Notes under the pieces: generated by a model
The model's input: the letters and a program-made list of their open reading frames with translations, nothing else
Databases searched by the model: none
What the model was told of the DNA's origin: nothing
Translations under genes and position numbers: made by a program
Shown: piece after piece, positions 3,716-64,000 of the stretch
Position numbering within the stretch: the stretch's first letter is position 1
Layout of the letters: each line of letters begins with the position of its first letter
Assembly (NCBI RefSeq): GCF_002854065.1
Contig: NZ_CP024147.1
Strand: one strand, 5' to 3'
DNA length: 64,000 bases
Source: Escherichia coli
GTDB taxonomy: Bacteria; Pseudomonadota; Gammaproteobacteria; Enterobacterales; Enterobacteriaceae

Positions 3716-4420
3716 TTAAAATCTGGCACTAACCCCCATCGTATACAGATAATCGCTATTGTTAGTGGTATTTTCTGCCTGAGATAGCGCGGCATAGGCG
3801 GCAATATTTTGATTGAGCAACATATCAGCGCCTACGGTGACATCCAGCCAGTTGCCGTTCTGGTTTGTCGCCGTCATCCGGCTCAGGCCTGATTGCGCCT
3901 TCCAGATATTCTCGCCAAATTGCTGGTTATAGCTGATTTGCGCCCAGGGTCGGAGATCGCCAAGCCGGGAGTCAACACGCCAGCCTAAGGTACTCACGCT
4001 GGCATGCCATAACGGATCGGTCAGCGTGGTAGTACTGTCGCCAAACTCGTTATACATCGAGGTGGTTGTGCCATCGTAATGTAATGCCGCGACCGGGCCA
4101 GTTGTAACCTGTTCATATAAAGGAAAATTCCAGCCCATACTCATACTGCTGGTCACATCCACAGGGGTTTCTTCCGCCAGATTGACTTCCAGTCCCAGCG
4201 CCCTTTGGCTACTTTGAATACGTTGCGACAAAATATCGTTGTAATCAGGTTGATGATCACTATCCCAGGTGTAACGCTCTGTGGAATGCCCGGGTTGCGT
4301 ATCAACGATATATTCTTGTTGCCAGGCGTAAGCTGTGTTGAGAAAAAAGGCACTGATTACCACACTCGCCAGCAGGCTTAGCTGCCAGCGACCACCGCTT
4401 TTTTTTATGATCATTAACAC
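3716..4420 (-). CDS. yhjY: Putative outer-membrane beta-barrel protein YhjY
   Basis: 234-aa ORF with signal-like N-terminus ...WQLSLLASVVISAFFLNTAYA and a C-terminal ...YLYTMGVSARF (terminal Phe). Recognised as YhjY. Confidence 0.85.
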   Translation of the reverse strand: MLMIIKKSGGRWQLSLLASVVISAFFLNTAYAWQQEYIVDTQPGHSTERYTWDSDHQPDYNDILSQRIQSSQRALGLEVNLAEETPVDVTSSMSMGWNFPLYEQVTTGPVAALHYDGTTTSMYNEFGDSTTTLTDPLWHASVSTLGWRVDSRLGDLRPWAQISYNQQFGENIWKAQSGLSRMTATNQNGNWLDVTVGADMLLNQNIAAYAALSQAENTTNNSDYLYTMGVSARF

Positions 4421-8789: not shown

Positions 8790-9764
8790 ATGAAGCCGTC
8801 CGTTATCCTCTACAAAGCCTTACCTGATGATTTACTGCAACGCCTGCAAGAGCATTTCACCGTTCACCAGGTGGCAAACCTCAGCCCACAAACCGTCGAT
8901 CAAAATGCAGCAATTTTTGCAGAAGCTGAAGGTTTACTGGGTTCAAACGAGAATGTAGATGCCGCATTGCTGGAAAAAATGCCGAAACTGCGTGCCACAT
9001 CAACGATCTCCGTCGGCTATGACAATTTTGATGTCGATGCGCTTACCGCCCGAAAAATTCTGCTGATGCACACGCCAACCGTATTAACAGAAACCGTCGC
9101 CGATACGCTGATGGCGCTGGTGTTGTCTACCGCTCGTCGGGTTGTGGAGGTAGCAGAACGGGTAAAAGCAGGCGAATGGACCGCGAGCATAGGCCCGGAC
9201 TGGTACGGCACTGACGTTCACCATAAAACACTGGGCATTGTCGGGATGGGACGGATCGGCATGGCGCTGGCACAACGTGCGCACTTTGGCTTCAACATGC
9301 CCATCCTCTATAACGCGCGCCGCCACCATAAAGAAGCAGAAGAACGCTTCAACGCCCGCTACTGCGATTTGGATACACTGTTACAAGAGTCAGATTTCGT
9401 TTGCCTGATCCTGCCGTTAACTGATGAGACGTATCATCTATTTGGCGCAGAACAATTCGCCAAAATGAAATCCTCCGCCATATTCATTAATGCCGGACGT
9501 GGCCCGGTGGTTGATGAAAATGCACTGATTGCTGCATTGCAGAAAGGCGAAATTCACGCCGCCGGGCTGGATGTCTTCGAACAAGAGCCACTTTCCGTAG
9601 ATTCGCCGTTGCTCTCAATGGCCAACGTCGTCGCAGTACCGCATATTGGATCTGCCACCCATGAGACGCGTTATGGCATGGCCGCCTGTGCCGTGGATAA
9701 TTTGATTGATGCGTTACAAGGAAAGGTTGAGAAGAACTGTGTGAATCCGCACGTCGCGGACTAA
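8790..9764 (+). CDS. ghrB: Glyoxylate/hydroxypyruvate/2-ketogluconate reductase B
   Basis: [28 protein letters not shown]... with the D-2-hydroxyacid dehydrogenase motif GIVGMGRIG. Start trimmed to 8790. Confidence 0.93.
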
Positions 9765-9782
9765 GCCGCGACTGCGTGGAGT

Positions 9783-32189: not shown

Positions 32190-32292
32190 ATTGCCTGATG
32201 CGCTACGCTTATCAGGCCTACATGAGTTCTGCAATATATTGAATTTGGAAGAATTTGTAGGCCGGATAAGGCGTTTACGCCGCATCTGGCAT
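32190..32292. repeat. BIME (two inverted REP units)
   Basis: TGCCTGATGCGCTACGCTTATCAGGCCTACA ... GTAGGCCGGATAAGGCGTTTACGCCGCATCTGGCA. The same core recurs at 53831-53931 and 63150-63238. Confidence 0.9.
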
Positions 32293-41337: not shown

Positions 41338-41421
41338 TGCCGGATGCGGCGTGTACGCCTTATCCGGCCTACGGTCAGGTCCCCGTAGGCATGATAAGAC
41401 GCGTAAGCGTCGCATCAGGCA
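41338..41421. repeat. BIME (two REP units) downstream of aldB
   Basis: TGCCGGATGCGGCGTGTACGCCTTATCCGGCCTAC ... GTAGGCATGATAAGACGCGTAAGCGTCGCATCAGGCA. Confidence 0.88.
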
Positions 41422-53797: not shown

Positions 53798-53992
<195 letters not shown>

Positions 53993-54021: not shown

Positions 54022-55170
54022 ATGAAAGCATTACATTTTGGCGCAGGTAATATCGGTCGTGGCTTTATCGGTAAACTGCTGGCAGACGCGGGTATACAAC
54101 TGACGTTTGCCGATGTCAATCAGGTGGTACTTGATGCCCTGAATGCCCGTCATAGCTATCAGGTTCATGTGGTAGGTGAAACCGAGCAGGTAGATACCGT
54201 TTCCGGCGTCAATGCTGTCAGCAGCATTGGTGATGATGTCGTTGATCTCATTGCTCAGGTTGATTTAGTCACTACCGCCGTTGGCCCGGTAGTGCTGGAA
54301 CGTATTGCTCCGGCTATCGCCAAAGGGCTGGTGAAACGTAAAGAACAAGGTAATGAATCTCCGCTGAACATCATCGCTTGTGAAAACATGGTCCGCGGCA
54401 CCACGCAACTGAAAGGCCATGTGATGAACGCCCTGCCGGAAGACGCCAAAGCGTGGGTAGAAGAACACGTTGGCTTTGTCGATTCCGCCGTTGACCGCAT
54501 CGTACCGCCTTCGGCTTCGGCAACTAACGATCCGCTGGAAGTGACGGTAGAAACCTTCAGCGAATGGATTGTCGATAAAACTCAGTTCAAAGGCGCACTG
54601 CCGAACATCCCAGGCATGGAGTTAACCGACAACCTGATGGCATTTGTCGAACGTAAACTCTTCACCCTGAACACGGGTCATGCTATAACCGCGTACCTCG
54701 GAAAACTGGCCGGTCATCAGACCATTCGTGACGCTATTCTCGACGAGAAAATCCGCGCGGTGGTAAAAGGTGCGATGGAAGAAAGTGGCGCGGTACTGAT
54801 CAAGCGTTACGGCTTTGACGCTGACAAGCATGCGGCGTACATCCAGAAAATCCTCGGTCGTTTTGAGAACCCGTATCTGAAAGATGATGTAGAGCGCGTA
54901 GGCCGTCAGCCGCTGCGTAAACTGAGCGCAGGCGACCGTCTGATCAAGCCACTGCTCGGTACGCTGGAATACGGCCTCCCGTACAAAAATCTGATTCAGG
55001 GAATTGCCGCTGCAATGCACTTCCGCAGTGAAGATGATCCACAGGCTCAGGAACTGGCAGCACTGATCGCCGACAAAGGTCCGCAGGCGTCGCTGGCACA
55101 GATTTCCGGGCTTGATGCCAACAGCGAGGTTGTATCTGAGGCGGTAACCGCTTATAAAGCAATGCAATAA
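54022..55170 (+). CDS. mtlD: Mannitol-1-phosphate 5-dehydrogenase
   Basis: [34 protein letters not shown]..., 382 aa. The ORF-track start at 53704 reads through the repeat region and is not real. Confidence 0.97.
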
Positions 55171-55757
55171 TGGTGGACCAGGCGCAGGACACCCTGCGCC
55201 CGAATAACAGATTGTCAGATATGCAGGCAACAATGGAACAAACCCAGGCCTTTGAAAACCGTGTGCTTGAGCGTCTGAATGCTGGCAAAACCGTGCGAAG
55301 CTTTCTGATCACCGCCGTCGAGCTCCTGACCGAGGCGGTAAATCTTCTGGTGCTTCAGGTATTCCGCAAAGACGATTACGCGGTGAAATATGCTGTAGAA
55401 CCGTTACTCGACGGCGATGGTCCGCTGGGCGATCTTTCTGTGCGTTTAAAACTCATTTACGGGTTGGGCGTCATTAACCGCCTGGAATACGAAGATGCGG
55501 AGCTGCTGATGGCATTGCGTGAAGAACTAAATCACGACGGCAACGAGTACGCCTTTACCGACGACGAGATCCTTGGACCCTTTGGTGAACTGCACTGCGT
55601 GGCGGCGTTACCACCGCCGCCACAGTTTGAACCAGCAGACTCCAGTTTGTATGCAATGCAAATTCAGCGCTATCAACAGGCTGTGCGATCAACAATGGTC
55701 CTTTCACTGACAGAGCTGATTTCCAAAATCAGCTTAAAAAAAGCCTTTCAAAAGTAA
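55170..55757 (+). CDS. mtlR: Mannitol operon repressor
   Basis: 195 aa. The start overlaps the mtlD stop (TAATG). Confidence 0.93.
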   Translation: MVDQAQDTLRPNNRLSDMQATMEQTQAFENRVLERLNAGKTVRSFLITAVELLTEAVNLLVLQVFRKDDYAVKYAVEPLLDGDGPLGDLSVRLKLIYGLGVINRLEYEDAELLMALREELNHDGNEYAFTDDEILGPFGELHCVAALPPPPQFEPADSSLYAMQIQRYQQAVRSTMVLSLTELISKISLKKAFQK

Positions 55758-55768
55758 GCAACGTCTGC

Positions 55769-55978
55769 TTACTGCCCCTCTACCTGCTTCGGCCGATAAA
55801 GCCGACGATAATACTCCAGACGTTGTAGATATAACGGCACGCTTTCATCGGGTATTCCGGACGGAATCGCGTTACGGGGAGGAAGTTTTTTCAGATACTC
55901 CCGGAACGCCTGACTTGATGCCATGAAATCTACGGCTTTATCGATAAGAAGCGGAACGTTTTCACCTAATTTGCCCAT
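55769..55978 (-). CDS. yibT: Small protein YibT
   Basis: 69-aa [34 protein letters not shown]..., in the position it holds in K-12. Confidence 0.8.
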
Positions 55979-56262
55979 GATGATATCTCCGTATTACCCC
56001 GCGCCGGGAATGCGCGGCCGCCAATTTTAGTTTAGGTTCCCGGTAAAGATGACATTAAGGAAAACGTGCTGAATCCTCAATAATCATCCGCTTCTGTTTA
56101 TTATCTTTTTTCTATAGATTTCTTAATTAATCAATAAATTGCGTAGTTTTTAAGCATATTAATGATTACGTTGCAGAACTATTGCAATGTCATCAGTTGT
56201 GAACAAAGCACCTGGTCGCGCATACTAGGGGCTATAAATTTATCTTTATCAGAAGCCATCAC

Positions 56263-56625
56263 ATGAAAGAAGTCGAAAAAAACGAAATCAAACGTCTCAG
56301 CGATCGTCTGGACGCCATCCGCCACCAGCAGGCCGATCTGTCGCTGGTTGAAGCCGCAGACAAATATGCCGAGCTGGAAAAAGAGAAAGCCACGCTGGAA
56401 GCAGAAATTGCCCGCCTGCGTGAAGTTCACAGCCAGAAACTGAGTAAAGAAGCACAGAAGCTGATGAAGATGCCGTTTCAGCGCGCAATTACCAAAAAAG
56501 AGCAGGCTGATATGGGCAAGCTGAAGAAAAGTGTTCGCGGACTGGTGGTTGTTCACCCAATGACCGCGCTGGGCCGCGAAATGGGCCTGGAAGAGATGAC
56601 CGGCTTCTCAAAGACCGCGTTTTAA
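56263..56625 (+). CDS. yibL: Ribosome-associated protein YibL (DUF2810)
   Basis: 120-aa [58 protein letters not shown].... Confidence 0.88.
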
Positions 56626-56669
56626 GTCCCCTACTGGTCAATACAACTAAAGTTTCCTCATTTTTATTC

Positions 56670-56700
56670 GCTCCTGCTGGCACATGCAGGAGCATATTTC
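56670..56700 (+). terminator. Candidate yibL terminator
   Basis: Stem GCTCCTGC (56670-56677) / GCAGGAGC (56686-56693), followed by ATATTTC. Confidence 0.55.
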
Positions 56701-56953
56701 AGATATCGAAATCTATTAACATTATCTTTTCAATTCTTCCCACTCACCTGAATAATTTTAGCAGGTTAAAATCTGAAAATATGTTACGCAATAAAAGTTA
56801 ATATATAATTTACAGCTATAAATATCAGCATAAACATGCTTATATCATAACTATTTATTTATATTTTCCAACTCAAACCGTCCTTGTCATCATAAAACAT
56901 TCACCATATAAATATTATCCTTTGCCTTTTTCTCACCTTATCCCTTTAAAAAT

Positions 56954-56983
56954 TTGACATCGATTGACACCAATCATTAGAAT
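56954..56983 (+). promoter_or_regulatory. Near-consensus sigma70 promoter candidate upstream of the lipoprotein-adhesin pair
   Basis: TTGACA (56954-56959), an 18-nt spacer, then TAGAAT (56978-56983). It lies in a ~470-bp AT-rich spacer about 190 nt upstream of the ATG at 57171. Confidence 0.4.
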
Positions 56984-57170
56984 CCGCGCGATTAATATAA
57001 TAATCGGCAACAAACTAAAATATTTCCGCATTGAATAACACATTCACAGTAACGACCAATTAAAAATATTATAAATTTTCACCGTGAATTTATTTAGCTT
57101 AATCATTCATAAAACAAATGATTGTAAAGTAATTTTCAACGCATCAGGATTATGAAAAGGAATTCATCCT

Positions 57171-57854
57171 ATGAATCTAAAAAAGACACTATTAAGCGTG
57201 TTAATGATATCGCCACTCTGCATATTGACAGGGTGTGACTATATTGGAAAAGCAAAACTAATCGACGATCTCTCCAAACAACAAGAGTTGCAAAAAGGTA
57301 AAATAGAGCAACTTGAAAAACAACAAGAACAAGATAAACGCAAGATAGAACTATTTGAAAAACAGCAAACTGCCATCATAAATAGTACCAAAACGCTTGC
57401 TAGTGTGGTGAAGGCGGTTAAAGAAAAGCAGGATGAATTTGTCTTCACAGAATTTAACCCAGCACAAACACAATACTTCATTTTAAATAACGGCTCTGTC
57501 GGTTTGGCGGGTCGGGTGCTGGCTATTGATGCAGTTGAAAACGGCAGCGTTATTCGTATTTCGCTGGTCAACCTATTAAGCGTTCCCGTATCAAATATTG
57601 GTTTTCATGCTACATGGGGCAATGAAAGGCCCACCGATGCCAAAGCTCTGGCGAAGTGGCAACAATTACTTTTCAATACCACCCTGAATTCCACTCTGCA
57701 ATTAATGCCTGGTCAATGGCAAGACATTAATCTGACATTAAAAGGCGTTTCGCCTAATAACCTGAAGTATCTGAAGTTGTCCATCAATATGGACAATCTC
57801 CAGTTCGACACAGTTCAACCTGCTGAAACTCGGCAGCGAAAAAACAAAAAATAA
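57171..57854 (+). CDS. Inner-membrane lipoprotein with an N-terminal coiled coil, SadB-like (trimeric-autotransporter helper)
   Basis: 227 aa. Lipobox LTGC with Asp at +2 (CDY, an inner-membrane retention signal). A heptad-rich segment QQELQKGKIEQLEKQQEQDKRKIELFEKQQ follows. The gene lies immediately upstream of the TAA gene. Confidence 0.75.
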   Translation: MNLKKTLLSVLMISPLCILTGCDYIGKAKLIDDLSKQQELQKGKIEQLEKQQEQDKRKIELFEKQQTAIINSTKTLASVVKAVKEKQDEFVFTEFNPAQTQYFILNNGSVGLAGRVLAIDAVENGSVIRISLVNLLSVPVSNIGFHATWGNERPTDAKALAKWQQLLFNTTLNSTLQLMPGQWQDINLTLKGVSPNNLKYLKLSINMDNLQFDTVQPAETRQRKNKK

Positions 57855-57897
57855 ATGCAGCTTCTGCGCTTATATCAAGGAATAGAGAACATCAATA

Positions 57898-60800
57898 ATG
57901 AACAAAATATTTAAAGTAATCTGGAATCCGGCGACGGGCAGTTATAGCGTTGCCAGCGAAACGGCGAAGAGCCGTGGTAAGAAATCTGGTCGCAGTAAGC
58001 TGTTAATTTCTGCACTGGTTGCGGGTGGAATGTTGTCGTCGTTTGGGGCAAATGCCAGTGCGACACTTGATGGAGGTTCATCTATTGAAGACCCATCAAT
58101 GGGTACTCGCTGGCTTGCAATCGGTGAGGGCGCAAAAGCAACATCCGCGTTACAAGGTGATGGATATACCGTTGCGATAGGGCTTAATGCACTAGCAGAT
58201 GGTCAGGGTAGTCTTGCATTCGGCTACGATACCCACTCATCGGGTGATCGTTCTATCTCTATTGGCCAATATGCTGAATCCGCAGGAAACAGAACCATTG
58301 CTTTCGGTAGTGGGTCCAAGGCAATAGGAGACTATTCGCTTGCATTAGGAGGAACTACCTATACAGGTGGTGACTACTCCATTGCAGTGGGTAGGGATTC
58401 GAGGGTAGAAGACGATGCTGATTACGCCTCCTCTTTTGGTTACGGCGCCAAGGCAGGCGGGGTCTATAGCATGGCATTCGGTTTCGAAACTAAAGCTAAT
58501 GCCGTTGACAGCCTGGCAATGGGACGACTAGCTACAGCCAGTGCAGCAAACGCTATTGCGATAGGTGCAGAGGCTGAAGCCGCTGAAAATGCGATGGCTA
58601 TTGGCAATAATGCGAAGGCAAAAGGGACTAATAGCATGGCAATGGGGTTCGGAAGCCACGCCGATAAAGTCAATACTATCGCATTAGGAAATGGCAGCCA
58701 GGCTCTGGCAGATAATGCAATCGCCATAGGCCAGGGCAACAAAGCTGATGGCGTGGATGCCATCGCTCTGGGTAATGGTAGCCAGTCGAGAGGCTTAAAC
58801 ACCATTGCCTTAGGCACAGCCAGTAATGCAACTGGTGATAAGAGTCTTGCGCTTGGTAGTGATACCACTGCCAACGGTATTAACTCCGTCGCATTGGGTG
58901 CAGGTTCCACTGCGGATTTAGACAATACCGTCTCTGTCGACAATAGTTCATTAAAACGCAAGATCGTTAATGTGAAAAATGGCGCGATCAAGTCTGACAG
59001 TTACGATGCCATTAATGGTTCACAGCTTTATGCCATTAGCGACTCGGTAGCACAAAGGCTTGGGGGAGGATCATCAGTAGATGTTGATGACGGTACTGTT
59101 ACAGCACCAACCTACAATTTAAAAAATGGTAGCAAAAAGAACGTAGGGGCTGCGCTCACTGTACTTGATGAAAACACCCTGCAATGGGACCAAATCAAAG
59201 GCAAATACAGCGCTGCTCATGGTACTAGTAGCCCAACTGCCAGCGTAATCACCGATGTTGCGGATGGCACGATTTCAGCCTCCAGTAAGGAGGCGGTTAA
59301 CGGCTCCCAACTGCAAGCTACCAATGACGATGTTGAGGCCAACACCACCAATATCACCAACCTGACGGATTCCGTTGGTGACCTTCAGGCTGATGCCCTG
59401 CTCTGGAACGAAACTAAAAAGGCATTCAGTGCAGCTCACGGCCAGGATACCACCAGCAAAATCACCAACGTTAAAGATGGCGACCTGACGGCTGGCAGCA
59501 CTGATGCCGTTAACGGCTCTCAGCTGAAAACCACCAACGATGCTGTGGCGACGAATACCACCAATATCGCCAATAACACTTCCAATATTGCCACTAACAC
59601 CACCAACATCTCTAACCTGACTGAGACGGTGACTAACCTTGGTGAAGATGCGCTGAAATGGGATAAGGACAATTGTGTCTTCACGGCAGCTCATGGCACC
59701 GATGCCACCAGCAAAATCACCAATGTTAAAGATGGCGACCTGACGGCTGGCAGCACTGATGCCGTTAACGGCTCTCAGCTGAAAACTACCAACGATGCTG
59801 TGGCGACGAATACCACCAATATCGCCAATAACACTTCCAATATTGCCACTAACTCCACCAACATCTCTAACCTGACTGAGACGGTGACTAATCTTGGTGA
59901 GGATGCTCTGAAATGGGATAAGGACAATGGTGTCTTCACGGCAGCTCACGGCACCGAGGCCACCAGCAAAATCACCAACGTTAAAGATGCCGACCTGACG
60001 GCTGACAGCACCGATGCCGTTAACGGCTCTCAGCTGAAAACCACCAACGATGCCGTGGCGACGAATACCACCAATATCGCCACTAACACTTCCAATATTG
60101 CCACTAACACCACCAACATCTCTAACCTGACTGAGACGGTGACTAACCTTGGTGAAGATGCGCTGAAATGGGATAAGGACAATGGTGTATTCACGGCAGC
60201 TCACGGCACAGAAGCCACCAGCAAAATCACCAACGTTAAAGATGCCGACCTGACGGCTGGCAGCACTGATGCCGTTAACGGCTCCCAGCTGAAAACCACC
60301 AACGATGCTGTGGCGACGAATACCACCAATATTGCCACTAACACCACCAACATCTCTAACCTGACTGAGACGGTGACTAATCTTGGTGAGGATGCGCTGA
60401 AATGGGATAAGGACAATGGTGTATTCACGGCAGCTCATGGCAACAACACCGCCAGCAAAATCACCAATATCCTGGACGGCACAGTCACTGCAACCAGTTC
60501 CGATGCCATTAACGGCAGCCAGCTTTATGACTTAAGCAGCAATATCGCCACCTACTTCGGCGGCAATGCTTCTGTGAATACTGACGGTGTGTTTACCGGT
60601 CCAACCTACAAAATCGGTGAAACAAATTATTATAACGTCGGCGATGCACTGGCTGCGATTAACTCCTCATTTAGCACGTCTCTCGGCGATGCCCTGCTTT
60701 GGGACGCTTCCGTAGATAAATTTAGTGCCAAACACGGTACTAATGGTGACGCAAGCGTGATCACTGATGTCGCAAACGGGGATGTTTCAAGCACAAGCTC

Positions 60801-63111
60801 TGATGCTGTGAACGGCTCGCAACTCTATACCACCAATAAGTACGTCGTAGATGCGCTGGGTGGTGGTGCCGAAGTCAATGCAGACGGCACCATCACTGCG
60901 CCGACGTACACCATTGCTAATGCTGATTACGATAACGTCGGTGATGCCCTGAACGCCATCGACACCACTCTCGATGATGCTCTGCTCTGGGATACGGACG
61001 CCGGTGAAAATGGTGCATTTAGCGCCGCTCACGGAAAAGATAAAACTGCCAGTGTAATCACTAACGTCGCAAACGGTGCAATTTCCTCCACCAGCAGCGA
61101 TGCTGTTAACGGCTCACAACTCTATACTACCAATCAGTACATAGTCGATGCGCTGGGTGGTGACGCAGAAGTTAACGCTGACGGCACCATCACCGCACCG
61201 ACTTACACCATTGCGAATACCGATTACAACAACGTCGGTGACGCCCTGGATGCGCTTGATGATAACGCCCTGCTGTGGGATGAGACTGCCAATGGCGGTG
61301 CAGGAGCCTACAATGCCAGCCATGACGGTAAAGCCAGCATCATCACTAATGTCGCTGATGGCAGTATTAGTGAGGACAGCACCGATGCAGTGAACGGTTC
61401 TCAGTTGAATGCGACGAATATGATGATTGAGCAGAACAGCCAAATCATCAATCAGCTTGCTGGTAATACCGACGCAACCTATATCGAAGAAAATGGCGCT
61501 GGTATCAACTACGTTCGTACTAACGACAACGGTTTAGCCTTTAACGATGCAAGCGCCTCTGGTGTCGGCGCTACAGCTGTAGGTTATAACGCTGTCGCGT
61601 CTGGTGCCAGCAGCGTAGCCATTGGTCAGAACAGCAGCAGCACCGTTGATACCGGTATTGCGCTGGGTAGCAGCTCCGTTTCCAGCCGTGTAATTGCCAA
61701 AGGTTCTCGTGACACTAGCGTAACGGAAAATGGCGTGGTGATTGGTTATGACACCACTGACGGCGAACTGCTAGGTGCATTGTCAATTGGTGATGACGGT
61801 AAATACCGCCAAATCATCAACGTAGCTGATGGTTCAGAAGCCCATGACGCCGTTACGGTTCGTCAGTTGCAGAACGCTATTGGAGCGGTCGCCACTACGC
61901 CAACCAAGTACTTTCACGCCAACTCAACGGCAGAAGACTCACTGGCCGTTGGTGAAGACTCGCTGGCAATGGGTGCGAAAACTGTCGTTAATGGTAATGC
62001 AGGTATTGGTATCGGTTTGAACACTCTGGTTCTGGCTGATGCGATCAACGGCATTGCTATCGGCAGTAACGCACGCGCAAACCATGCAAACAGTATTGCA
62101 ATGGGTAACGGTTCTCAGACCACCCGTGGTGCACAGACTGGCTACACCGCCTACAACATGGACGCACCGCAGAACTCTGTAGGTGAGTTTTCTGTTGGTA
62201 GTGAAGACGGTCAACGTCAGATCACCAACGTCGCAGCTGGTTCAGCGGATACCGATGCGGTTAACGTGGGTCAGTTGAAAGTCACTGATGAGCGCGTAGC
62301 GCAAAATACCCAGAGCATTACTAACCTGAACAATCAGGTCACTAATCTGGATACTCGCGTTACTAATATCGAAAACGGTATTGGCGATATCGTGACCACC
62401 GGTAGCACCAAGTACTTCAAGACCAACACCGATGGCGTAGATGCCAACGCCCAGGGTAAAGATAGCGTTGCGATTGGTTCTGGTTCCATTGCTGCCGCTG
62501 ACAACAGCGTCGCACTGGGTACAGGCTCCGTGGCCAACGAAGAAAACACGATCTCTGTGGGTTCTTCTACCAACCAGCGCCGTATCACCAACGTAGCTGC
62601 CGGTGTTAATGCCACCGATGCGGTTAACGTGTCGCAGCTGAAATCTTCTGAAGCAGGCGGCGTTCGCTACGACACCAAAGCTGATGGCTCTATCGACTAC
62701 AGCAACATCACTCTTGGTGGTGGCAACGGAGGTACGACTCGCATCAGCAACGTTTCCGCAGGTGTGAACAACAACGACGCGGTGAACTACGCGCAGTTGA
62801 AGCAAAGCGTGCAGGAAACAAAGCAATACACCGATCAGCGCATGGTTGAGATGGATAACAAACTGTCTAAAACTGAAAGCAAGTTGAGCGGGGGTATCGC
62901 TTCTGCAATGGCAATGACCGGTCTGCCGCAGGCTTACACTCCAGGTGCCAGCATGGCTTCTATTGGTGGCGGTACTTACAACGGTGAATCGGCAGTTGCT
63001 TTAGGTGTATCGATGGTGAGCGCCAATGGTCGTTGGGTCTACAAATTACAAGGTAGTACCAATAGCCAGGGTGAATACTCCGCCGCACTCGGTGCCGGTA
63101 TTCAGTGGTAA
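57898..63111 (+). CDS. upaG: Trimeric autotransporter adhesin (UpaG/EhaG/SadA family)
   Basis: 1737 aa. Extended signal peptide [29 protein letters not shown]...FGANA. YadA-like head repeats (NSMAMGFGS.., NTIALGNGS.., NAIAIGQGN..). DALL-type (DALLWD) and HANS (KYFHANS) motifs, and necks ([30 protein letters not shown]). C-terminal YadA anchor ending ...AALGAGIQW. Confidence 0.92.
59392..60470 (+). repeat. In-frame tandem repeat, 255-nt (85-aa) unit, about 4.3 copies, within the adhesin stalk
   Basis: Units start at 59392, 59647, 59902, 60157 and 60391. The spacing is 255, 255, 255 and then 234 nt. Copies are near-identical ([85 protein letters not shown]). Confidence 0.95.
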
Positions 63112-63149
63112 TGATCCATTAAGTTAGTGTGACTAAGGGCAAACGCCAA

Positions 63150-63238
63150 ATTGCCTGATGCGCTACGCTTATCAGGCCTACAGGGTGATTCTGCACATTC
63201 CTATAGGCCGAGTAAGGTGTTCACGCCGCATCTGGCAA
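63150..63238. repeat. BIME (two REP units) after the adhesin gene
   Basis: TTGCCTGATGCGCTACGCTTATCAGGCCTACAG ... ATAGGCCGAGTAAGGTGTTCACGCCGCATCTGGCA. Confidence 0.88.
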
Positions 63239-63264
63239 GATAAGGCGCACCGGGTCAACAATCT

Positions 63265-63300
63265 AAGGGCAATTCTCTGATGAGGATTGCCCTTTTCTTT
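63265..63300 (+). terminator. Rho-independent terminator
   Basis: Stem AAGGGCAAT (63265-63273) / ATTGCCCTT (63286-63294), followed by TTCTTT. Confidence 0.75.
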
Positions 63301-63322
63301 ACCAGACATCTCCCCCCACAAG

Positions 63323-63339
63323 AATTGGCCCTACCAATT
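63323..63339 (+). promoter_or_regulatory. LldR operator O1
   Basis: AATTGG-CCCTA-CCAATT has perfect 6-bp palindromic arms. Its centre is 126 bp from the second site, matching the O1/O2 layout I recall for lldPRD. Confidence 0.7.
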
Positions 63340-63448
63340 CTTCGCTTATCTGACCTCTGGTTCACAATTCCCCAATTAAAACTCACATCAATGTTGCCAA
63401 TACATAACATTTAGTTAACCATTCATTGTCATTATCCCTACACAACAC

Positions 63449-63465
63449 AATTGGCAGTGCCACTT
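63449..63465 (+). promoter_or_regulatory. LldR operator O2
   Basis: AATTGGCAGTGCCACTT is an imperfect copy of the O1 palindrome, upstream of the lldP ATG. Confidence 0.65.
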
Positions 63466-63537
63466 TTACACAACGTGTGACAAGGAGATGAGCAACAGAC
63501 TCATTACACGATGTGCGTGGACTCCAGGAGACCTGCA

Positions 63538-64000
63538 ATGAATCTCTGGCAACAAAACTACGATCCCGCCGGGAATATCTGGCTTTCCAGCCTGATAGCA
63601 TCGCTTCCCATCCTGTTTTTCTTCTTTGCGCTGATTAAGCTCAAACTGAAAGGATACATCGCCGCCTCATGGACAGTGGCAATCGCCCTTGCCGTGGCTT
63701 TGCTGTTCTATAAAATGCCGGTCGCTAACGCGCTGGCCTCGGTGATTTATGGCTTCTTCTACGGGTTGTGGCCCATCGCGTGGATCATTATTGCAGCGGT
63801 GTTCGTCTATAAGATCTCGGTGAAAACCGGGCAGTTTGACATCATTCGCTCGTCTATTCTTTCGATAACCCCTGACCAGCGTCTGCAAATGCTGATCGTC
63901 GGTTTCTGTTTCGGCGCGTTCCTCGAAGGAGCTGCAGGCTTTGGCGCACCGGTAGCAATTACCGCCGCATTGCTGGTCGGTCTGGGCTTTAAACCACTGT
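63538..64000 (+). CDS. lldP: L-lactate permease, 5' part (runs off the window end)
   Basis: ATG behind AGGAG. Translation is [61 protein letters not shown]..., recognised as LldP. There is no stop before position 64000. Confidence 0.93.

Follow-up and report, generated by a model that had tools for sequence, protein, structure and literature searches.

The sadBA operon sits between the mtl and lld operons, and in K-12 a deletion of ~5 kb covers sadBA and leaves both neighbouring operons intact (Grin et al. 2014, PMC3953254). SadB of Salmonella enhances the display of SadA; it is also the only SadB for which a trimer boosting the surface display of the adhesin has been shown (PMC3953254). The positional orthologs in pathogenic E. 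coli are EhaG (EHEC) and UpaG (UPEC; Valle 2008, Totsika 2012), which have been reported to bind extracellular matrix proteins and to mediate autoaggregation and biofilm formation. Repression of UpaG by H-NS is mentioned in PMC5012682, with reference to Totsika 2012, and the mention of such repression in an earlier reading of the sequence thus has its counterpart in the literature.

The locus described here lies in a window of 64,000 nt, by which we mean the whole stretch of DNA that was analysed. It resembles Salmonella sadBA in its position between mtl and lld, the two-gene layout, the gap of 43-44 nt between the genes and the homology of SadB (E 1.6e-72). It differs from SadA in that the adhesin counts 1737 aa, with another head and repeat content. 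EhaG and UpaG share its ESPR-head-stalk-anchor architecture; their C-terminal 200 aa are identical to those of the adhesin in the window, and identity over the last 400 aa is 95-100%. From sequence and gene order we classify the adhesin as a positional ortholog of UpaG, EhaG and SadA and as an allele of the UpaG/EhaG locus that is identical to neither named protein.

Gene content and control signals between yibL and lldP

In the window 6912 bp separate the end of yibL (56625) from the lldP ATG (63538), against 371 bp in K-12-like strains. The near-identical strain 100416 has lldP annotated in RefSeq from the same start. A reading made from the sequence only (hereafter the sequence-only reading) had estimated 6.9 kb here and a few hundred bp in K-12, and these distances bear it out; the K-12-like strains were also looked at for the 6.9-kb interval, and 371 bp was found. 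The elements it had listed (yibL, leader and promoter, SadB gene, trimeric autotransporter gene, BIME, terminator, O1 and O2) all lie at or near where it had placed them. Coordinates are provided in Table 1. Apart from sadB and the adhesin gene the interval has no long plus-strand ORF; its minus-strand ORFs lie inside these two.

Table 1. Features of the yibL-lldP interval and its flanks, in positions of the window
Feature	Start	End	Strand	Description and basis
yibL, left flank	56263	56625	+	120 aa; NCBIfam PRK11020 equivalog, E 7.5e-57
AT-rich leader upstream of sadB	56626	57170	+	545 bp, 30% GC; composition
Segment missing from K-12-type genomes	56627	63177		6551 bp; K-12 has 10 nt AACACAGTAT instead
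Hairpin after yibL	56670	56693	+	GCTCCTGC-loop-GCAGGAGC; RNA fold
Conserved box AAAATCTGAAAAT	56767	56779	+	invariant columns in 7-way leader alignment
Putative sadBA promoter	56954	56983	+	TTGACA-N18-TAGAAT; 11/12 consensus positions
sadB	57171	57854	+	227 aa; match to PDB 4C47 (Salmonella SadB), E 1.6e-72
Trimeric autotransporter adhesin gene	57898	63111	+	1737 aa; Pfam ESPR, YadA_head, YadA_stalk, YadA_anchor
Four tandem 255-nt (85-aa) repeats in adhesin stalk	59425	60489	+	repeat search, family D1
REP1 of BIME (shortened REP)	63153	63181	+	aligned to canonical REPs elsewhere in window
REP2 of BIME (inverted, near-canonical)	63204	63237	-	aligned to canonical REP; weak Rfam naRNA4 (REP-derived) match
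Intrinsic terminator of adhesin operon	63265	63300	+	13-bp stem and T-tract; terminator scan; fold -20.9 kcal/mol
LldR box O1	63323	63339		AATTGGCCCTACCAATT; exact palindrome
LldR box O2	63449	63465		AATTGGCAGTGCCACTT; reverse complement of second LldR box in PMC10272880
lldP 5' part, right flank	63538	64000	+	RefSeq annotation of matching records

Residues 23-227 of SadB align to residues 3-207 of the 4C47 chain, i.e. the whole mature protein, and the two proteins are ~53% identical. No Pfam or NCBIfam match was obtained for SadB at E 1e-3, but its identity is settled because the match to 4C47 is decisive; in RefSeq its homologs carry the name SadB/YajI family lipoprotein. The signal peptide (MNLKK...CILTGC-DY) ends in the lipobox LTGC, followed by Asp at +2, and Asp at this position is the inner-membrane retention rule of Lol sorting. 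The product of sadB is thereby predicted to be an inner-membrane lipoprotein and a helper in the export of the trimeric autotransporter adhesin.

The adhesin gene follows on the same strand after 43 nt. No plus-strand terminator is predicted between the two genes in the terminator scan, and we expect sadB and the adhesin gene to be co-transcribed. Pfam assigns to the adhesin an ESPR at 1-48, nine YadA_head and 14 YadA_stalk matches and a YadA_anchor at 1677-1737, and conservation is strong over the C-terminal 300 aa. Its top PDB matches, both in the stalk, are 2YO0 and 2YO3, which we take as GCN4 fusions of SadA fragments. In BLASTP the adhesin is 98.6% identical to that of strain 100416, from which it differs by 63 nt in length near 59355, just upstream of the tandem repeats. 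Identity is lower for annotated EhaG (71%) and the B2-type LF82 allele (62%), both aligned end-to-end; the sadB partners of these two alleles are 68% and 82% identical to the one in the window. Its function as an adhesin is predicted.

The leader accounts for the AT-rich spacer of ~470 bp with a near-consensus promoter that the sequence-only reading had described: the AT-rich portion is the part of the yibL-sadB spacer beyond the hairpin after yibL. Between allele classes the leader cannot be aligned, save for two conserved blocks in a 7-way alignment of E. coli alleles, E. fergusonii, Salmonella and Pseudocitrobacter. The hairpin after yibL is probably the yibL terminator, judging from its fold. 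It is kept in the alleles of the window, O145, E1V33, LF82 and MAG L006 and in Pseudocitrobacter vendiensis, and is absent from K-12; it fails the T-tract rule of the terminator scan.

Promoter-like sites are, in total, no more frequent in the 7.4-kb scanned region than in shuffles (12 against 10.6 expected). The putative sadBA promoter is the top-scoring one, and its core (TTGACA-N17/18-TAnnAT) is retained in all 10 alleles and species examined while the surrounding leader is divergent. In the eight alleles measured the core sits 173-223 nt 5' of the sadB ATG. The AAAATCTGAAAAT box lies ~185 bp upstream of the core. The ribosome-binding region is strongly conserved as well. This sigma-70 promoter may well be the one used to transcribe sadB and the adhesin gene, and the AT-rich leader may be silenced by H-NS.

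Downstream of the adhesin gene two REPs in opposite orientation (REP2 being compared as reverse complement) are joined by a short linker and form a BIME. It is followed by the terminator, whose hairpin spans 63265-63294 and whose T-tract reaches 63300. O1 starts 23 nt past this T-tract, and PMC10272880 lists its sequence among the LldR boxes, placing it between yibL and lldP. The O1-O2 spacing is 126 bp, the same as in K-12, and is kept in eight of nine loci checked (125 bp in P. vendiensis). With two 17-bp boxes at fixed spacing upstream of lldP, the region has the layout of an LldR-regulated lldPRD promoter. The sequence-only reading had held that the lldP control region was untouched, with O1 23 nt after the terminator and the spacing preserved; the region is intact and both distances hold. 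An Rfam scan gave two sub-threshold matches only, STnc380 and naRNA4; the former was assigned to the lldP upstream region rather than to the segment, because K-12-like DNA shows it too.

Taken together, a sigma-70 promoter in the AT-rich leader would drive sadB and the gene for the 1737-aa adhesin. SadB would act as an inner-membrane trimeric lipoprotein that aids display of the adhesin, and the transcript would end at the BIME and the intrinsic terminator, just before the LldR-controlled lldPRD promoter.

Breakpoints of the K-12 deletion and origin of the locus

Breakpoints were obtained with blastn and MAFFT by comparing a K-12-like genome (L001) and isolate F1267 (L011) with the window. Both empty-site lineages break at 56626/56627 and 63177/63178, i.e. 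1 nt past the yibL stop on the left and inside REP1 on the right. From 63178 to 64000 the K-12-like sequence is 97.9% identical to the window without gaps. Since the alignment resumes at 63178, REP2 and the terminator are kept in K-12 and do not belong to the missing segment: REP2 is present in the K-12-like genome, and the terminator stands there downstream of yibL. The right boundary between 63240 and 63320 proposed in the sequence-only reading thus has to be moved into the BIME. Relative to the allele in the window, the ~5-kb deletion of Grin et al. measures 6551 bp, with ends now mapped to the base.

A comparison of the interval across genomes had been suggested for presence, absence and breakpoints. 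Leader and sadB were located in 4151 of 5426 complete E. coli genomes, and the K-12-type junction, queried as a sequence matching in one place, in 1263 (~23%). One genome is without the locus through an IS1-associated rearrangement. No operon-bearing genome that was sampled yielded the 10-nt filler AACACAGTAT; in each of them the match ended on the G that follows the yibL stop. The likeliest source of the filler is the start of an unsampled leader allele (a progenitor leader beginning TAAGAACACAGTAT).

The gene order mtlADR-yibT-yibL-sadB-adhesin-lldPRD is shared by E. fergusonii, Salmonella and Pseudocitrobacter, and for this reason K-12 is read as carrying a deletion. We assign a probability of roughly 0.9 to the interval being an ancestral enterobacterial sadBA-type operon, lost from K-12 and ~23% of complete E. 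coli genomes by one deletion. This single event would run from 1 nt past the yibL stop to the end of REP1 and spare REP2, the terminator and all of the lld control region. Two empty-site genomes were aligned, and their identical breakpoints point to one event.

The opposite polarity, a horizontally acquired island inserted between yibL and lldP with the K-12 state as the ancestral empty site, could draw on the AT-richness of leader and sadB (28-40% GC) and on the presence/absence polymorphism within E. coli. It would have to explain, however, why three other taxa show identical synteny, and why the K-12 junction keeps half of the BIME and the operon terminator while lacking the conserved hairpin after yibL. 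A mobile island was rejected as well: no tRNA genes occur in the whole 64,000-nt window, no direct repeats flank the segment and no integrase or other mobility gene is among the long plus-strand ORFs of the interval, an absence that the sequence-only reading had claimed and that the ORF list, tRNA scan and repeat search uphold. An acquired island is hardly credible on these grounds. The idea of an old, non-mobile and differentially lost segment, also put forward in that reading, is supported by the synteny and by PMC3953254.

Neither does the operon look like a decaying remnant, silent or pseudogenised and on its way to being lost. Its absence from 23% of genomes, the IS1-associated loss and the H-NS silencing of UpaG reported in PMC5012682 might indicate such a fate. 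Both ORFs are nevertheless intact over their full length and encode signal sequences and the anchor domain, and the promoter core, ribosome-binding region and adhesin C-terminus have stayed strongly conserved. We regard decay as improbable, if slightly less so than acquisition, and retain the ancestral operon lost by deletion.

Allele classes of the leader, sadB and adhesin head

The sequence-only reading had treated the locus as a single static island. Instead, its leader, sadB and adhesin head form a hypervariable cassette whose alleles are as divergent as those between genera. Compared with the EhaG-type allele that is common in E. coli, sadB shows 70% nucleotide identity, against 97-99% for mtlR, yibL and lldP; E. 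fergusonii (80%) and Pseudocitrobacter (76%) are closer. The window carries a third, rarer class, common to O145:H28, O169:H41 and strain 100416, which about 1% of E. coli genomes carry; its allele occurs at at least 90% identity in ~54 of the 4151 operon-bearing genomes. Even to the closest class (O145) the adhesin head region 58050-58506 cannot be aligned.

These divergences fit a reading that complements the ancestral operon rather than competing with it. The locus would be old, but its leader-sadB-head allele would have come from another Escherichia or enterobacterial lineage through homologous replacement, as an exchangeable cassette with its left anchor in yibL and its right anchor in lldP or the conserved 3' part of the adhesin gene. 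In its favour, besides the rarity of the allele and the lower identity of sadB than of its flanks, similarity between classes stops exactly 1 nt past the yibL stop, the SadB tree is discordant with the species tree (E. marmotae has three allele classes) and the SadB protein is 98% identical to that of Escherichia sp. E1V33. Balanced alleles long maintained by diversifying selection would, however, look the same without any recent transfer, and we put replacement at even odds.

A wider version can be offered only tentatively, at somewhat less than even odds. Here the cassette would be a trans-species polymorphism, with classes predating the split of the Escherichia species and swapped by homologous recombination, the left edge lying exactly at the yibL stop and the right anchor in the 3' half of the adhesin gene, which is conserved. 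The promoter core and the AAAATCTGAAAAT box would then mark a conserved regulatory input.

Significance of the locus

Summarizing, the locus and its deletion in K-12 have already been published, and the finding is correct but ordinary. What is added here are the exact breakpoints, the promoter core shared across genera and the deep divergence of sadB alleles within E. coli. Beyond annotation the significance is small: the adhesin of this strain is a rarer allele of the UpaG/EhaG locus, and the ends of the K-12 deletion are now given at base level. The control region of the lactate operon, the adhesin terminator and one REP are common to the operon-bearing and the empty state. The conservation of the promoter core across genera provides a concrete target for studying how a usually silent adhesin is switched on.

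Gene content of the yibL-lldP interval

The distance between yibL and lldP is 6912 bp in the window against 371 bp in K-12-like genomes. The only long plus-strand ORFs in this interval are sadB and the adhesin gene, which are separated by 43 nt; the minus-strand ORFs sit inside these two. Coordinates and gene content of the ~6.5-kb adhesin island described in the sequence-only reading are borne out. Between 55 and 64 kb the window is E. coli chromosome and practically the same as strain 100416, which comes from human stool in Gambia: identity is 100% for 55001-59355 and 99.9% for 59339-64000. The two differ here only by an indel of 63 nt (21 aa) near 59355, at a boundary between repeats of the adhesin stalk (9730-9777 in the comparison locus L010), which indicates repeat-number variation between close relatives.

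The 227-aa SadB protein matches the Salmonella SadB crystal-structure sequence (PDB 4C47, 'inner membrane lipoprotein') over residues 23-227 (E 1.6e-72) and contains the lipobox LTGC followed by Asp. Pfam and NCBIfam searches of this protein gave no match at 1e-3; homologs are named DUF3251 or SadB/YajI family lipoprotein in RefSeq. The adhesin contains an ESPR, nine YadA_head and fourteen YadA_stalk stretches and a C-terminal YadA_anchor. Its closest solved relatives are PDB 2YO0 and 2YO3, which we take to be SadA fragments fused to GCN4. End-to-end identity amounts to 71% with an annotated EhaG, 62% with the LF82 (B2, UpaG-type) allele and 81% with the O145:H28 allele. All three share the final 200 residues with the window's adhesin, and identity over the final 400 is 95-100%.

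Features of the locus and its surroundings in window coordinates
Feature	Position	Remarks
yibL	56263-56625	
yibL-sadB spacer (leader)		545 bp; 30% GC
Conserved post-yibL hairpin	56670-56693	
Invariant leader block	56767-56779	AAAATCTGAAAAT
Putative promoter	56954-56983	TTGACA-N18-TAGAAT
sadB ORF	57171-57854	227 aa
Adhesin ORF	57898-63111	1737 aa
Tandem repeats in adhesin gene	59425-60489	four of 255 nt
REP1	~63153-63181	shortened, 3' of adhesin stop codon; aligns to canonical REPs elsewhere in window
REP2	~63204-63237	inverted, near-canonical; aligns to canonical REPs elsewhere in window
Canonical REPs	32258-32286, 41343-41371, 53900-53928	references for the degenerate REPs
Terminator hairpin	63265-63294	13-bp stem; T-tract to 63300
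LldR box O1	63323-63339	AATTGGCCCTACCAATT
LldR box O2	63449-63465	AATTGGCAGTGCCACTT
lldP ATG	63538	

The K-12-type junction and the ancestry of the operon

Alignment of K-12-like DNA to the window runs to 56626, one nucleotide past the yibL stop codon, and resumes at 63178, from where it continues without gaps at 97.7-97.9% identity. Ten unrelated bases, AACACAGTAT, occupy the junction, and the same junction is found in isolate F1267, a second empty-site lineage with flanks that are 97-98% identical. The alignment ends and the matching junction of F1267 therefore define a K-12-type state without 56627-63177. In this state the post-yibL hairpin is missing and REP1 is reduced to its final four bases; REP2, the terminator and the lld control region are kept in full.

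The order mtlA-mtlD-mtlR-yibT-yibL-sadB-TAA-lldP-lldR (TAA, trimeric autotransporter adhesin) was found in assemblies of E. fergusonii and Salmonella, with flanks ~81-85% identical to the window, and also in two Pseudocitrobacter species. No tRNA genes were found within the 64-kb window and no direct repeats flanking the segment. Given this synteny across genera and the absence of tRNA genes, flanking repeats and other long plus-strand ORFs, the operon is ancestral, and K-12 has lost it by deletion. The sequence-only reading, which took the island for an old, differentially lost segment rather than a mobile element, was right in substance but wrong at one boundary: its right end (63240-63320) lies 60-140 bp too far to the right, and the terminator it assigned to the island is common to both states, standing directly 3' of yibL in K-12. 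The operon was already known, and its absence from K-12 already published: Grin et al. 2014 locate sadA, in Escherichia, Salmonella and Shigella alike, between the mtl and lld operons, demonstrate that it shares an operon with sadB, and describe a ~5-kb deletion in K-12 that removes both genes and leaves both neighbouring operons intact (PMC3953254).

The K-12-type junction occurs, in one place, in 1263 of 5426 complete E. coli genomes, and the leader and sadB occur in 4151. At least one genome outside these two groups lost the locus via an IS1-associated rearrangement that starts right after the post-yibL hairpin: in L009 (NZ_CP195347.1, 3964-4850), yibL and this hairpin are followed first by IS1 and next by a truncated gene for a fimbrial usher, which marks an independent loss or rearrangement of sadBA associated with IS1.

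None of the sampled operon-bearing genomes contained the 10-nt filler; in every one of them the match ends at the G after the yibL stop. Because leader alleles diverge from exactly the base after this stop, the simplest inference is that the filler would represent the first bases of a leader allele outside the sample. In K-12-type genomes the final 58 nt of yibL (4240-4297 in the K-12-like L001) are a haplotype of their own, separated by 4-6 differences from each of the operon-bearing genomes sampled; the sample thus does not include the allele from which the deletion arose.

Leader and lldP control region

The best sigma-70 match in the region (11/12 positions) is the putative promoter; the total of promoter-like sites does not exceed shuffled expectation. 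The weight of this site comes from conservation: TTGACA, a 17-18 nt spacer and TAnnAT are kept in all ten leaders examined (window, O145, E1V33, LF82, a MAG, EhaG-type, two Pseudocitrobacter, E. fergusonii and Salmonella), which are otherwise largely unalignable. The motif ends 173-223 nt before the sadB ATG in the eight alleles measured. Another block, which lies ~185 bp 5' of the -35 hexamer, shows no variation among the E. coli allele classes, E. fergusonii, Salmonella and Pseudocitrobacter and may be a regulator site. UpaG is named in PMC5012682 as one of the autotransporters repressed by H-NS, with Totsika 2012 as the source; the 30% GC of the window's leader would fit such control.

On the other side, O1 and O2 are the two LldR boxes given for the yibL/lldP spacer (PMC10272880). 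Their start-to-start spacing is 126 bp in the window and in the K-12-like, EhaG-type, LF82, Escherichia sp. E1V33, E. fergusonii, Salmonella and P. cyperus loci, and 125 bp in P. vendiensis. Aguilera et al. in 2008 reportedly placed O1 at -105 to -89 and O2 at +22 to +38; with these positions and the box spacing, the lldP transcription start presumably lies near 63428. Rfam gives a full-length but sub-threshold match to STnc380, a Salmonella sRNA family (minus strand, 63256-63364; E 2e-4 and 37 bits, the gathering score being 60), which spans the adhesin terminator and O1 on the other strand. Since it also occurs in K-12-like DNA (L001, 4386-4494), it is part of the lldP upstream region that both states share.

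In EhaG-type strains one hybrid REP (L002, 10417-10540) takes the place of the window's two (63112-63240), a difference that a deletion between the inverted REPs of the BIME could explain. This spacer has at least three length classes in E. coli genomes, the match of the K-12-type junction query starting at query position 209, 250/254 or 294.

Allelic divergence within a fixed frame

Nucleotide identity of the window to other operon-bearing loci
Locus	Flanking genes	sadB
E. coli EhaG-type	97-99% (mtlR, yibL, lldP)	70%
E. coli LF82 (UpaG-type)	94.5-98.5%	81%
E. fergusonii	~84-85%	80%
P. vendiensis	~80-82% (mtlR, yibL)	76.5%
Salmonella (GCA_010666005)	~82-85%	72%

Within E. coli, sadB alleles differ by up to 30% of nucleotides against 1-3% in the flanking genes (57171-57854 compared with L002, L004, L007, L012 and L015). 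By these identities the window's sadB is closer to the alleles of other species and genera, E. fergusonii and Pseudocitrobacter among them, than to the common EhaG-type allele of E. coli, and its leader cannot be aligned to the common EhaG-type locus at all. At 90% identity or more, the leader and sadB allele of the window occur in only ~54 of the 4151 operon-bearing genomes; the closest complete genomes are O145:H28 and O169:H41 strains. Species are intermixed in the SadB tree, with three allele classes within E. marmotae, and the adhesin head segment 58050-58506 is unalignable even to O145.

This allelic structure is a feature that the sequence-only reading did not see. Judged from the allele divergence, the mixed SadB tree and the unalignable head, the locus is a mosaic, hypervariable adhesin cassette in a fixed frame, an arrangement typical of surface adhesins. 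The pattern could reflect allelic exchange or balanced alleles of long standing.
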